Counted from the first letter of the stretch, positions 9,131 through 38,222 are shown. The stretch is 64,000 nt of DNA from Candidatus Borrarchaeum weybense (GCA_019057385.1 JAHQJS010000008.1:96001-160000); one strand, 5' to 3'. The notes: generated by a model from the sequence alone, not told the origin. Translations and numbers: made by a program.

Positions 9131-12100
9131 ATTAAGATAGAAAACCTTCCACTTCCTAAAGAAGCTTTGGACCTATTAAAAGATCATGGACTCGTGGATC
9201 TTTATCCACCACAAGCAGATGCGATTCAAGGAGGTGTCCTTGATGGAGACAACATGTTATTAGCATGTCCAACAGCTTCTGGAAAAACGTTGATTGCAGA
9301 ATTAGCAATGCTGAAGCATATTCTAGAATGGAATGGTAAGGTAATCTATCTCGTTCCACTGAAAGCCTTAGCTTCTGAGAAGAAAGAAGAGTTCCAAAAA
9401 TATGAAGCTTTAGGAATAAAAACAATAGTAAGTACTGGGGATTTTGATACCAAGGATCAATGGTTGAAAAATTTCGATATAATAATCTGTTCTAACGAGA
9501 AAACTGATTCATTATTACGACATCAGGTTTCTTGGATGAAAGATATTTCACTTATTGTAAGTGATGAAGTTCATCTCATTACCGATCCAAGTCGAGGTCC
9601 AACACTTGAAGTAGTCCTGTCTAAACTAAGACAAATAAATCCAGAAGCTCAACTTCTTGCACTTTCTGCAACTATAAAGAATGCGAACGAAATTGCAGAG
9701 TGGTTAAATGCTAAATTAATTCTGAGCGAATGGAGACCTGTAATCTTACGAGAGGGGGTTTATTACAACGGAACAATTGAGTTTGAAGATGGAGAATTAG
9801 AAGAAATCACAGCCACATCCATAAAACCGGAAAAAATTAGCAAAAGAAAAACAACAGCCAAAAAAAGAAAGAAAAAAACAAGACAAACTATTGATGACCC
9901 CATGATAAACTTGTTAAGAGATATACTACGTAAAAATGGACAGATGATAGTTTTTACAAATACAAGAAAATCGACAATGTCATTAGCTTCTAAATTAGCG
10001 AGATCTATACTAGATTTTTTGACAGATGAAAACAGAGATGTATTCAAAAGTATCAACGAAGAAATCTTGTCTACGGGGGCAGACACTTCATTACGAGCAC
10101 GTTTAGCGCAGACAGTTTTAGGAGGAGTAGCATTTCATCATGCTGGGATGGATTATCGGCATAGAAGGATAGTAGAGGCTTACTTCAAAGAAAGAATCAT
10201 TTTTGCAATTTGTGCAACTCCGACACTTTGTCTTTCTCCTGAAACTAAGATATGGCATGGAATATTTGAAACAAAAGTGCCCGATTTCAAAACTTCCAAT
10301 CCACTCTTTGCATTATCCCAGAATAAATTAATTTCAATAAAAGCATCTCATGTTTACGATCTTGCTAATTTTTCCCCGTTAATTCAAATATCATCTGTTT
10401 CAGGTTATTCAATTAGAGTAACTCCTAACCACAAAATGCTAGTTAAAAGAAATAATCGGCCAATGATTATTCAAGCTTGTCAAATTGTCAAAACAGATAA
10501 AATTGCCACAATAGGGAAATTATCCCTCAAGGAAACTTATTATTGTAATATCGATGATTTTGTTATAGATAACAGACATAACGTTACTAAACACGAAATT
10601 GATCACGATTTAGCATACTTTGTTGGACTGATGCTGGGAGATGGTTACTCTGGTGCAGAAACAAAAGAAGGTTTAATTTTTTATAAAGGCTCACCATCAA
10701 TTGTTGGATTAGATGATGAAATATTTTCACATGTAGAAAAGGTCTGTTATAAACTGAATATTAGTTGCAGGAAATCAATAAACTCATTCGACACACCTAT
10801 GCTTATTTTAGGGAAAAACAAATGGTTTCGAGAATTTTTAGTTAGATGCGGAGTTGAAAAAGGAGATCAGAAATATATTAATTCTGCTCTTATGAAAATG
10901 AATCTAGAAAAAACATCTTCTTTGCTAAGTGGTCTCTTTGATAGTGACGGATATGTCAACAAAGGAAGAAACATAGGGTTTAGTAATACATCAGAAAAGC
11001 TTGTGAAGCAAGTAAAAAAACTACTTCTGAGATTTGGAATAGTAAGCCGTCTTAGAAAACGAAAAGGTAGTTCAATAAAACTTCATAAAAAGGAATATGA
11101 AACAAAACCATGTTATGAACTAATAATCGCTCAGACACAGAGTTTATTAGACTTTCACAATTATATTAAGTTCAATGTTTCGAGAAAACAAAAAGAACTT
11201 AGTTCATTAATAGCAAAAATCAAATCAAATGTTCTGCATATATCCTGTTCAAAATGTAACTATAAGATTTTTAGATCTCTTTTTTCTGGCCGAACCGAGA
11301 AACAGAAAGAATGGGGAGAATTAAAGCATTCAATAATCTGTCTCTTGGGTAAGCAAGGGGAACTTGGGTCAAATGAAATTGAGAAAATCTTAGGTAAAAA
11401 ACCTAGAAAGAAAGATAATCGAATAAACCAACATTATGAATTAATCAATAAACGGAAGATTGGTAGTGTTAGCAAGATCGAGTGGTTTTGGAGTCTTAAT
11501 GAAATCGGTAAATGGATTTTCACAAATTTTCTTGTTAACGATAGAAATTTCGATGATTTTTTCAATTTAAAACATTGTCCTTTATGTGGAACAAGATTTG
11601 AAGGTAAAATAAGAGGTAACTGGAGAACTAATGATTTTTATGGTGATATCTTTTGGGATATCATTCGAGAAATTAAGTATGTCAAATCAAGCCAACGTGT
11701 TTTCGATATTGTTTTACCAAATCTTCCTGAAAATGATCATCTGTTTGTAGCAAACGGGTTTATTGTTCATAACTCAGCAGGTCTCAACCTTCCAGCAAGA
11801 CGAGTTGTAATAAGAGATTATAAGAGATACAGTTTTAGTAGAGTAAGATTGGGAAACCTAGTAGAAATACCTGTATTAGAGTATAAACAAATGGCAGGTA
11901 GAGCTGGAAGACCAAAGTTTGATACTGTTGGCGAAGCCATTCTAATTTCCAAGTCAGAAGAAGAAAAAGATGAACTAATGGAACGCTATATAAAAGGGGA
12001 TACTGAAAGAATTACCTCAAAACTTGCAGCGCTATCTTCTCTGAGAAGTCATCTTTTAGGTATTATTGCCACTGGTTTTGTTGATACAGAGGGTGACATT

Positions 12101-16924: not shown

Positions 16925-17149
16925 GCGGTCTCCCTGTCAGAGTCGTGTTTCCCTTCGACAAGGTATATCGGGCGTAGTCTATTAGTGGTAGACGTGGAAT
17001 TGAGTGATTCTTCCGAAGTGGGCTGAACTAGGGAGGCATCCAGCCATTCTTGTAGCCCAATACACGTAGTTCTTGCAGAACTTAGTCTAGTCAATTCTTG
17101 CGTTGGTATCACCATCCCAAGCCCCGTCCTTCAGGGCGGGGTAATTGAC
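16925..17149 (-). ncRNA. omega RNA (HEARO-like) scaffold of IsrB; guide expected from the 5' flank (about 17150-17170)
   Basis: GTCAA..hairpin..TTGACTAGACT..CTACG..GGATGCCTCCCTAGT..GTCGAAGGGA motif order. Confidence 0.85.
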
Positions 17150-36056: not shown

Positions 36057-36206
36057 TGATTAACAATAGTATAATATGCAAGCATATTATAATTGCTTTT
36101 TATCATTTTAATTTGTATCTTTAAAAAAAAGGTCGGTAGACTTTGTAATCGAAAAAATAAATCAATTTATCTTCCATTCTCACGTCATTACGGAGGACGG
36201 CAGACA

Positions 36207-36869
36207 GTGAGTAAAGATATGCTAGAAAATTATCCAAAAGCAATTATTTTTGATCTTGATGGTACTTTGATTGATAGTATTCCAGCTCATTTACATGCTT
36301 ATAAGGAATTGGCTATGAGTGAATTTGGAATACAGCTTAATGACGAAAAGATTTTTGAGCATTTTGGAAAAAAATCAAGAGATATTATTACGGCCCTATT
36401 TCCTCTTTGTGGGGAAAATATTGATATTTTAGTTGAAACAAAGCAACGTCTTTATAGACAATCTTTTAATCGTGTGAAATTACTTCCGGGAACCAAAAAG
36501 GTATTACGTATTGCAAAAGAAAAGGCTATAAAATGTGCTCTTGGAACAAGTTCAAGTAAAAAGAATGTAGAGGTTGCAATCAAAGAATTTGGTCTTGAGT
36601 TTGACATTATTATTGCAGGTGAGGACATAGAAGTTGGAAAACCGAACCCTGAAACCTTCTTAACAATAGCTCAAAGATTAGAGATCTCACCAGATGATTG
36701 TTTTGTAATTGGCGATGCTATTTATGATATGATGGCCGCTAAAAAGGCAGGAATGCTTGCTATAGGCGTCTTAACAGGAAGCACGACCAGAAGACAAATG
36801 GAAGAAGCAAATGCAGACGTTATATTTGAAAATCTTTTGGAATTCATGGAATGGGCTCAACTAACCTAA
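36207..36869 (+). CDS. HAD-superfamily phosphatase (beta-PGM/Gph-like)
   Basis: FDLDGTLIDS, TSS, KPNP, IGDAIYD; GTG 36207 follows GGAGG (ORF-track start 36093). Confidence 0.9.
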   Translation: MSKDMLENYPKAIIFDLDGTLIDSIPAHLHAYKELAMSEFGIQLNDEKIFEHFGKKSRDIITALFPLCGENIDILVETKQRLYRQSFNRVKLLPGTKKVLRIAKEKAIKCALGTSSSKKNVEVAIKEFGLEFDIIIAGEDIEVGKPNPETFLTIAQRLEISPDDCFVIGDAIYDMMAAKKAGMLAIGVLTGSTTRRQMEEANADVIFENLLEFMEWAQLT

Positions 36870-36893
36870 CCCGAATCTTTTTTTTAACTTTAT

Positions 36894-37329
36894 CAGCGGG
36901 AAGTCCACTTCCGGAAGGTGGGGGATGAAAGTCGATGGCTTTTTATAGTTTTTTTGAACTTATATACCTGGTACGGCGAGTGTACCCGTAATGCCCGACT
37001 GGGTGGAGGTATATCCTCCTGTAAGTGACCAGTCAGCAAGTGACAGGGCTAAACGTGAGGATGCCCGTGCATGAGGTCTTATCCAGCGTCAAGAAAGTCT
37101 CCTTAGTGTGTGCAGTTTGCTAACCTGCCAAGCAGGCAGGTAACAGATCAATAACATCCTGCAGGCAGATAATCAAGGGGCAGGATAAGGGTGAGCAGCG
37201 TGTGCAACCTGGTAAGCTTCCGTAAGCCCATAACTGTAGGAAAAGTGGCGAAGCGTCGCCTCCCGTGAGGGAGCGAGAACTACAATGGAAAGCTGGAAGC
37301 CCCATCCGAAAGGCTGGGGAGGATGTCAC
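36894..37329 (+). mobile_element. Non-autonomous IS200/IS605 element with no ORF
   Basis: TTTAT then left-end hairpin ...GGGGGATGAA; right end GAAGCCCC-hairpin-GGGGAGGATGTCAC; GC-rich against AT-rich flanks. Confidence 0.8.
36970..37329 (+). ncRNA. Predicted ~360-nt structured omega-like RNA
   Basis: TATA-like TTTTATA about 25 nt upstream; many hairpins (GGTAC/GTACC, GACTGG/CCAGTC, GGAGG/CCTCC, ACCTGCC/GGCAGGT, GGCGA/TCGCC, CTCCC-GTGA-GGGAG). Confidence 0.65.
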
Positions 37330-37342
37330 CAAAATACTATCC

Positions 37343-37756
37343 TTATGGCAGTTTTGGAATCATCATATATAAAAGGCCGAAATATGCTGCAATCACTGCA
37401 ATGACTCCAATAAGAAGAAGTGTCCGTGCGTAAGTTGGTTCGTAAAAATACCTTGTGCTATAGAATATGACTACAAAACCTATGAAACCCACAAACATTA
37501 ACATGCCCGCAACGATACCTTCGATGATAAATTGAGAATCAAGACTTTCATAGATTAAAACAGGGATACCATATTGTGAACCTAGTGGAAGCGGCTCTTT
37601 GACAATATCGAAAAGAAGTCCCACATAGATCGTAAAAATGAATATTATCGTTATTTGAAGGAGCAAACCTGTTGGAATCTCGGATGGAAGCTGAAGTTTA
37701 GGTTTTCTGAGAATAATTTTTGGTTTTCTGATTCCTGGAATCCATCTTAGCCGCAT
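37343..37756 (-). CDS. OSTC/DC2-like oligosaccharyltransferase subunit (OST3/OST6-related)
   Basis: FDIVKEPLPLGS...QFIIEGIVAGMLMFVGFIGF resembles DC2 YDVIVEPPSVGS...[20 protein letters not shown]; 3 TM; ATG 37756 (the ORF-track extension lies in the neighbouring element). Confidence 0.8.
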   Translation of the reverse strand: MRLRWIPGIRKPKIILRKPKLQLPSEIPTGLLLQITIIFIFTIYVGLLFDIVKEPLPLGSQYGIPVLIYESLDSQFIIEGIVAGMLMFVGFIGFVVIFYSTRYFYEPTYARTLLLIGVIAVIAAYFGLLYMMIPKLP

Positions 37757-37816
37757 GGAATAGCACCTGATCACATATAAAACGTTTCTTGTTTTTAACA
37801 CAAGTTTGTGTTTTAT

Positions 37817-38222
37817 ATAACCTCCGCAATAAGACTTCATCCGCTAGGGTGGAGATGAATTGCGGTATATTTCTTTGTAAAGTGGTGGGCACCTCCCCTT
37901 TTTGCTGGGACAAGAGCAGGTGCCCCGAACTATATTTAACGACCTGTAAAGGTCAGCTCCGCAACCGCGGGTAGGTCCTCATCGCCAATGTTGGGGCAGG
38001 CACAAAACATGATGATGGTGCAGGTCTCAGGATAGCGACCTGGGTCGTCCACCATGTCTTTCAGAGCCCGGAACTTGAGGAGCATTCCAGGGTGATTTTC
38101 AGACACTCAGCACCGAACGTAGTTCATCTGCCTCCACCCTGAAGGAGACATCACTCAGGCTAATCTCTTACCCCTCTACAGGGACTTTTTCAAGCCCCTT
38201 CCGTCAGGGAGGGGTAGTTGAC
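37817..38222 (-). mobile_element. Non-autonomous IscB-type element: stand-alone omega RNA (HEARO-like), no ORF
   Basis: GTCAACTACCCC-hairpin-GGGGCTTG..GATTAGCCTGAG..CTACGTT..CACCCTGGAATGCTCCTCAAGTTCC..AACATTGGCGATGAGGA, then the opposite end hairpin and ATAAA. Confidence 0.88.

Follow-up and report, generated by a model that had tools for sequence, protein, structure and literature searches.

We propose that a 441-bp element at positions 36889-37329 (+) of the window is a protein-less transposon of the IS200/IS605 type (PATE), which carries nothing but a gene for an expanded TnpB-type omega RNA, self-promoted and acting in trans. We give this reading a probability of roughly 0.7. The window is the whole stretch of DNA that was analysed, 64,000 nucleotides of the Asgard archaeon Candidatus Borrarchaeum weybense (GCA_019057385.1, JAHQJS010000008.1:96001-160000), and all positions without a contig or locus name are counted from its first letter.

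A discrete element inserted 3′ of TTTAAC

The element begins with TTTATCAGCGGG... at 36889, directly 3′ of TTTAAC (36883-36888), and its last bases, GGATGTCAC, end at 37329. With a G+C content of ~53%, it forms a G+C-rich island in a window of 33-42%, and it sits between two stops, those of a HAD-type hydrolase ORF (36093-36869, +) and of a membrane-protein ORF (37343-37840, −). BLAST and nhmmer identified six full-length copies with 88-92% identity in its own 4.18-Mb genome, plus one shorter variant, and further copies are found in four sister genomes of the same genus. When the copies are aligned with their flanks, homology starts right after TTTAAC and stops at GGATGTCAC, the flanks being unrelated and different in every copy. 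The orthologous locus of the sister genome G003 is an empty site, in which ...CTAACCTAACCCAAATGCCTTTTTAAC is joined to TAAAAATTAGCCTTGTGGCAGTTTTGG (the junction can also be given as TTTTTAAC followed by TAAAAAT), so that the sequence orthologous to the 3′ flank comes directly after TTTAAC. The occupied allele of the window reads ...TTTTTTAAC, then the element (36889-37329), then CAAAATACTATCCTTATGGCAGTTTTGG. The boundaries of the copies and the empty site of G003 therefore establish a precise insertion 3′ of TTTAAC without target duplication, in the IS200/IS605 manner. TTTAAC precedes most copies in the five genera concerned, a few having one-base variants such as TTAAAC or TTGAAC, and resident TnpB elements are likewise preceded by TTTAA(N). 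The features of the locus are listed below.

36883-36888 (+): target site and presumed TAM, TTTAAC, kept 5′ of copies in five genera
36889-36939 (+): left end (LE) with a subterminal hairpin of IS200/IS605 type, assigned by its likeness to resident LEs
36940-36948 (+): TTTTTATAG, the TATA box of a predicted promoter of archaeal type inside the element, retained by nearly all copies shown, with a predicted start near 36970
36970-37329 (+): conserved structured RNA of ~360 nt, interpreted as the scaffold of an expanded TnpB-type omega RNA from its consensus structure, its relatives detected with the covariance model R1 (see below) and covariation
36993-37049 (+): 5′ module, in which helix P1 (GCCC at 36993-36996 with GGGC at 37046-37049) encloses P2 and the pseudoknot strand
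36997-37034 (+): hairpin P2 inside P1, GACTGG (36997-37002) with CCAGTC (37029-37034)
37040-37045 (+): 5′ strand of the pseudoknot, GUGACA, in the loop closed by P1, which pairs with UGUCAC at 37324-37329, the last six bases
37103-37176 (+): optional hairpin domain of 74 nt, closed by CTCC (37099-37102) and GGGG (37177-37180), absent from the 'short' subfamily
37215-37294 (+): 3′ domain, a long-range helix AGCTTCC/GGAAAGCT (37215-37221 with 37287-37294) around two hairpins, one with a GUGA tetraloop
37296-37329 (+): right end (RE), hairpin CCCCATCC-GAAA-GGCTGGGG followed by AGGATGTCAC, which resembles the RE of resident TnpB elements and where homology ends
37330-37349 (+): 3′ flank, putative guide source if transcription reads through, different in each copy and overlapping ORF 37343-37840 (−) at its stop codon end

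The absence of a protein, part of the original prediction for this locus, was confirmed. No ORF of more than 70 aa lies inside the element, and none inside has protein similarity. A tblastn search of all 2,945 genome ORFs of at least 150 aa against the element copies returned noise only, and the interior has neither DNA similarity (nhmmer --max) nor protein similarity to tnpB; a coding remnant was discarded on these grounds. As for known RNAs, a tRNA search of the window found none, and no Rfam family, ribozymes and introns included, matched the element stretch at the gathering threshold or at E<=10. Housekeeping RNAs (RNase P, SRP), group I/II introns and known ribozymes were set aside because of this lack of an Rfam match and because the element is multi-copy with transposon ends.

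Ends in common with resident IS605-type elements

The first ~75 nt of the element, i.e. the LE and its hairpin, match ~20 other sites of the genome at ~80% identity. At five of these sites, an ORF of 411-427 aa follows, and the two such ORFs that were scanned contain the Pfam TnpB domains HTH_OrfB_IS605, OrfB_IS605 and Cas12f1-like_TNB. The LE-matching element at C7:194100 additionally encodes a Y1_Tnp transposase. The sole Y1 TnpA gene of the genome, C7:194221-194586, is inside an element with a related LE, and a Y1 (HUH) TnpA is thus present in trans for the protein-less element. Since the genome (G000) has ~40 TnpB-family genes of several subfamilies for a single Y1 TnpA gene, nearly all its IS605-type elements depend in trans on that one transposase. 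At the other end, the RE of resident TnpB elements reads ...GGAAGCCCCATCCGTCAGGGTGGGGTAGTTCAC and that of the present element ...GGAAGCCCCATCCGAAAGGCTGGGGAGGATGTCAC. Among the element copies, the interior is better conserved than the LE.

Reduced elements are also found in this genome. Mini-elements of 47 nt, in which TTTAAC is followed by TTATGCGGCGGGAAGTCCCC-ATCCGAAAGGCTGGGGAGGATGTCAC, are located at G000:C6:740456-740502, C4:817183-817229, C6:90731-90777 and C7:213987-214033. Their LE and RE hairpins are fused into one hairpin with nothing between, and they are either minimal transposable units or products of internal deletion. In addition, G000:C8:185651-185957 is a PATE of ~300 nt made up of an LE, a compact TnpB-type omega RNA module of ~133 nt (AATGCCAAGTGGACAGGCTA...GGTAGTTCAC) and an RE. 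It is a simple, deletion-type stand-alone omega RNA that coexists with the expanded form.

A predicted internal promoter

The left-end hairpin and internal TATA that had been predicted are both present. The TTTTTATAG box is kept in 6/6 own-genome copies and, with two exceptions, in the long copies shown from the sister genomes; the ~20 nt that follow it vary, and the strongly conserved RNA starts ~24 nt downstream. Most of the distant relatives shown, which come from other genera, have a TTTATAG/TTTAAAG box ~24-31 nt upstream of the conserved (G)GUAUGCCC start of the RNA. The spacing observed is that of an archaeal TATA promoter, and transcription is predicted to begin near 36970. Because this promoter is inside the element, downstream of the LE, the 5′ end of the RNA would be made of element sequence. 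Its position would thus exclude a guide taken from the 5′ flank, and an IscB-style 5′ guide was not borne out.

One short-variant copy (G000:C7:870494-870821, −; L007:1501-1828) lacks the promoter segment, its LE hairpin being joined directly to the RNA. The CCGACTGGG sequence that both share forms the joint in this copy and points to recombination of the LE with the 5′ module of the RNA.

A conserved fold with compensatory changes

An alignment of 19 sequences of the genus yielded a consensus structure of 76 pairs. From distant copies aligned with MAFFT, RNAalifold retrieved this structure in part, and the pair counts were therefore taken from a model-fitted alignment of 24 sequences. In the latter, in which the fit inflates pair counts somewhat, 90.5% of the cells are paired versus 80.9% in shuffles, and double changes affect 36/70 pairs versus 19.3 +/- 2.1 in shuffles and ~10 when the partner is slid. 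None of 500 shuffles reached the observed value for pairing or for double changes. Compensatory changes are found in helices 9-13, which form the 3′ domain, and the many G-U pairs fit the + strand reading only.

The long-range pairs of the original prediction, CTTATCC/GGATAAG (37078-37084 with 37183-37189), TGTAG/CTACA and AGCTTCC/GGAAAGCT, are all part of the consensus, two of them with compensatory changes. The pseudoknot proposed at the same time, CTCCTT:AAGGGG, turned out to be something else: CTCC:GGGG is the nested helix that closes the optional 74-nt hairpin, and the actual pseudoknot is GUGACA:UGUCAC. A K-turn-like reading of the AUGA/GA internal loop was considered and could not be established.

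The copy L098:1501-1771 (−), from a distant genus, carries an additional hairpin in the position of the 37103-37176 domain, and its CUAnCC...GGUAAAAGA motif is similar. The optional domain may thus predate the Borrarchaeum-type long form, or it may have been acquired recurrently.

Distribution of the RNA in Asgard genomes

A search with R1, a trimmed covariance model of 336 positions, identified relatives of 210-270 nt in 16/151 sampled Asgard genomes belonging to 5/52 genera, and none at the same threshold in the remaining Asgard genomes searched. Most of the relatives with a readable flank combine an LE hairpin and a TATA box with a GGATGTC(A/G)C end, and they are preceded by TTTAAC or a one-base variant of it. 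All those examined are intergenic and stand-alone. No ORF was found within or next to any copy examined (~40 loci in five genera, as well as two metagenome contigs), and none of the copies examined overlaps a tnpB ORF at its 3′ end or comes after one. The original prediction suggested looking for longer relatives that would reveal the cognate ORF; no ORF-linked long form was found in the own genome, in the 151 Asgard genomes, in contigs (exact 20-mer) or in one metagenome scan. Our literature search on this RNA family found no paper that describes it, although one may still exist.

The copies L090:1492-1718 (−) and L091:1497-1725 (+) are in two species of another Asgard genus. They occupy the same syntenic position and have similar 3′ flanks, and the insertion is therefore old and retained.

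A weak R1 match at 11825-11914 lies in a coding region and was taken as chance. The same applies to bacterial 20-mer matches (L051, L057), which nhmmer with the element profile misses at E<=0.01.

Relationship with TnpB omega RNAs

In every copy and genus, conservation of the scaffold stops exactly at the RE, GGATGTC(A/G)C, and the flanks beyond it are unrelated. The predicted TnpB-type 3′ end is thereby borne out, as a long structured RNA abuts the RE. The last bases are also those engaged in the pseudoknot. Among 28 sequences, 93.5% of the cells of GUGACA:UGUCAC are paired versus 14-61% when the strands are slid, and the second pair is UA in 17 sequences, CG in 10 and UG in one, and never unpaired. 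The pseudoknot thus includes one covarying pair, possibly stemming from one or two events, and the end sequence doubles as the TnpA DNA cleavage site. The omega RNA of the resident TnpB clade has a like arrangement, AAUGCC-AAGUGGACA-GGCUA, in which GUGGAC pairs with the terminal GUUCAC, and the corresponding pairing in the TnpB omega RNA of another genus is GUGAAC:GUUCAC. RNAalifold by itself predicts the terminal pseudoknot helix in the TnpB omega RNA. The guide RNA of ISDra2 TnpB has a pseudoknot that joins positions -6 to -2 to a distal 5′ segment, and this feature has been described as conserved among the guide RNAs of TnpB and of all Cas12 enzymes (PMC10097598).

The long RNA and the TnpB omega RNA have in common the module AAUGCC...AAGUG(G)ACAGG(G)CUA, plus the terminal hairpin. 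The composite motif AA[TC]GCC..GTG(G)AC[AG]GG(G)CTA occurs 12 times in the genome, in five long copies and seven TnpB-type omega RNAs and nowhere else; its core has 14 genome occurrences in all. Run without filters, R1 gives an end-to-end alignment with the final 133 nt of four TnpB elements, correct in place and strand, with weak scores of 8.5-10.8 bits and E values of 0.05-0.2 (best 10.8 bits, E 0.047). The reciprocal model R2, which represents the TnpB-linked omega RNA, gives 13.3 bits on the long RNAs (E 0.14), below significance. As scores are weak in both directions, homology would rest mainly on the short modules and not on a global score. The 5′ module, the pseudoknot and the terminal hairpin, all in common with the compact resident omega RNA, make the 'distinct omega-RNA class' of the original prediction too strong a term. 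The long RNA, 1.6 to 2.7 times longer than its cognate 133-nt omega RNA, appears to derive by expansion from that of the resident TnpB clade.

A TnpB of the related clade is found in 12/16 RNA-bearing genomes versus 17/135 genomes without the RNA; these genomes are kin and the counts are not independent, and the co-occurrence is only suggestive. The four RNA-bearing genomes without such a TnpB are all 77-84% complete. The related TnpB proteins have intact RuvC D, E, D motifs and an intact zinc finger. Action in trans with an effector encoded elsewhere, as originally proposed, seems most likely, and TnpB genes of the related IS605 family are present in the same genome. The 3′ flank at 37330-37349 would then be a candidate 3′ guide. 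As predicted, it reads antisense into the stop region of the neighbouring ORF, 37343-37840.

On the far side of the membrane-protein gene, 37971-38222 (−) is a second protein-less guide-RNA element, of the HEARO (IscB/IsrB) type, with 71.4 bits for an Rfam cut-off of 83 (E 2.4e-14). On the + strand at this element, an IS605-type RE hairpin ends at 38222 (...GAAGCCCCTTCCGTCAGGGAGGGGTAGTTGAC), and R2 matches 38108-38222.

Proposed mechanism and alternatives

The mechanism that we favour, and consider probable, is homing or retention of a TnpA-mobilised, self-transcribed element, dependent on TnpB and guided by the 3′ flank. The single Y1 TnpA of the genome would move the element as single-stranded DNA. 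Transcription would start near 36970 and pass through the RE into ~16-20 nt of flank, which would constitute the guide, and a TnpB of the related IS605 clade would bind the RNA in trans. After excision by TnpA, the TnpB-RNA complex would cut the rejoined site, recognised by TTTAAC and a match to the guide, and recombinational repair from a sister copy would then restore the element. The extra domains, namely P2, the enlarged central domain and the optional hairpin, may make the RNA more stable or give it an advantage over the cis-encoded omega RNA in the competition for TnpB. In a bolder scenario, which we regard as rather unlikely, the long form is an RNA-only hyperparasite of TnpB elements: its extra domains and own promoter would serve to out-compete the cis guide or to recruit additional factors. 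Alternatively, it would serve another effector; in both cases, it would form an independent Asgard lineage of mobile guide-RNA genes.

Over half of the RNA (the central domain, P2 and the optional hairpin) has no counterpart in the 133-nt omega RNA and yet is conserved across genera, with compensatory changes. Together with the apparent own promoter, the weak reciprocal model searches and the antisense orientation of the present 3′ flank relative to a gene end, this is what one might expect of a structured RNA that is not a guide, such as a decoy titrating TnpB, a ribozyme, or an RNA with a regulatory or antisense function. The IS605 ends would then be a mere vehicle, and the likeness to omega RNA at both ends would be inherited and no longer functional. 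We consider this unlikely, as the pseudoknot that involves the terminal bases of the element is kept with covariation, as expected for a scaffold that presents a 3′ guide, and no Rfam family was matched at E<=10. Furthermore, the flanks are unrelated between copies, and there is therefore no common antisense target. It is less probable still that the RNA is a guide working with an effector other than TnpB of the IS605 clade, be it a TnpB-like regulator devoid of nuclease activity or another of the ~40 TnpB paralogues, the copies being regulators of the host or of elements and not homing guides. The number and diversity of TnpB-family genes would provide candidates for such a role, the insertion retained at one site by two species of a different genus could reflect it, and the related clade is missing from 4/16 RNA-bearing genomes. 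However, LE, RE, TAM, pseudoknot and 5′ module all fit one IS605 clade, no gene is consistently adjacent, and no alternative effector was linked to the RNA.

The other two readings have very little probability in our view. The original prediction described a hybrid, or chimera, of an IscB/IsrB (HEARO) scaffold with a TnpB-type 3′ end, from the short motifs GTGACCAG, CTCCTTAGT and ATCAAGGGG found in the same order as in the IsrB RNA of the window; IscB-type RNAs are indeed present in the same genome and share IS605-type ends. Nevertheless, the Rfam HEARO covariance model matches nothing in 36700-37500 at E<=10, whereas it gives 97.7 bits at 16942-17149 (−) and 71.4 bits at 37971-38222 (−) for the genuine HEARO RNAs of the window. 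In return, R1 with filters off finds nothing in the HEARO RNA. The nested position of CTCCTT:AAGGGG and the internal promoter, which would rule out a 5′ guide from the flank, also speak against the hybrid. An untranscribed deletion remnant of a TnpB insertion sequence would account for the ends in common with TnpB elements, in a genome that does contain deletion products (the 47-nt LE/RE fusions and the ~300-nt PATE). However, the interior shows no similarity to tnpB in DNA or protein; moreover, it is more conserved than the LE, and promoter and structure are kept across five genera with compensatory changes. A lack of covariation had been named in the original prediction as the mark of such a remnant, and the covariation found exceeds that of the shuffles (0/500). 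The omega RNA-bearing PATE is thus the reading that we retain.

So understood, the element is a clean case of an RNA-only mobile element with its own promoter and a scaffold enlarged two- or threefold relative to the cognate guide RNA, kept in several Asgard genera. It represents a natural test of how far an omega RNA can expand and still, presumably, load TnpB, and it offers a means to study competition between trans and cis guides. TnpB tools with a TTTAA-type TAM might also draw on it for promoter-driven trans guide scaffolds. As for annotation, such G+C-rich intergenic islands in AT-rich Asgard genomes would be mobile guide-RNA genes and not unknown housekeeping RNAs.

Comparison with known systems

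HEARO, the omega RNA of IscB/IsrB (RF02033), is similarly found on IS200/IS605-type elements, as illustrated by the protein-less copy at 37971-38222 (−) of the window. In contrast with the present RNA, its guide is in 5′ position, its transcription runs inward from the end of the transposon and its fold is different, and the two do not match. The ISDra2 TnpB omega RNA (PMC10097598) is closer in architecture, with its guide in 3′ position, a pseudoknot formed upstream of the guide with a distal 5′ segment and a terminal stem-loop before the guide. No sequence similarity between the two is detectable, however. Its scaffold of 116 nt overlaps the tnpB ORF and is used with a TTGAT TAM, whereas the present scaffold is ~3 times longer, overlaps no ORF and has TTTAA(C) as its presumed TAM.

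The omega RNA of the resident Asgard TnpB clade (G000:C4:626103-627391; L115:2645-2789) has the same LE, TTTAA(N) target, RE hairpin with a ...TCAC end, module and pseudoknot geometry. It differs by its length of 133-145 nt, its overlap with the last ~95 nt of tnpB and a central region that is not alignable, and it ends in GTAGTTCAC where the present element ends in GGATGTCAC.

Protein-less PATEs encoding omega RNAs that need TnpB in trans have been described by Meers et al. 2023 (PMC10055086). Mobilised omega RNAs that stand alone and function in trans are also known from Altae-Tran et al. 2021, and the summary of that work in PMC10691335 gives their role as unknown. Like PATE-borne omega RNAs, the present RNA belongs to a protein-less, multi-copy element with the LE and RE of a resident IS605 family, mobilised in trans; its scaffold ends at the RE, so that the flank would provide the guide, and it would need a TnpB encoded elsewhere. 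Unlike them, it is 215-360 nt long for a cognate cis omega RNA of ~133 nt, and it has extra conserved domains and a conserved TATA of its own. In addition, the family is kept stand-alone in several Asgard genera, with no ORF-linked long form in the genomes searched. The element thus belongs to the known kind of stand-alone omega RNAs, and what is new is the expansion of the RNA and the conservation of this expanded form across Asgard lineages.
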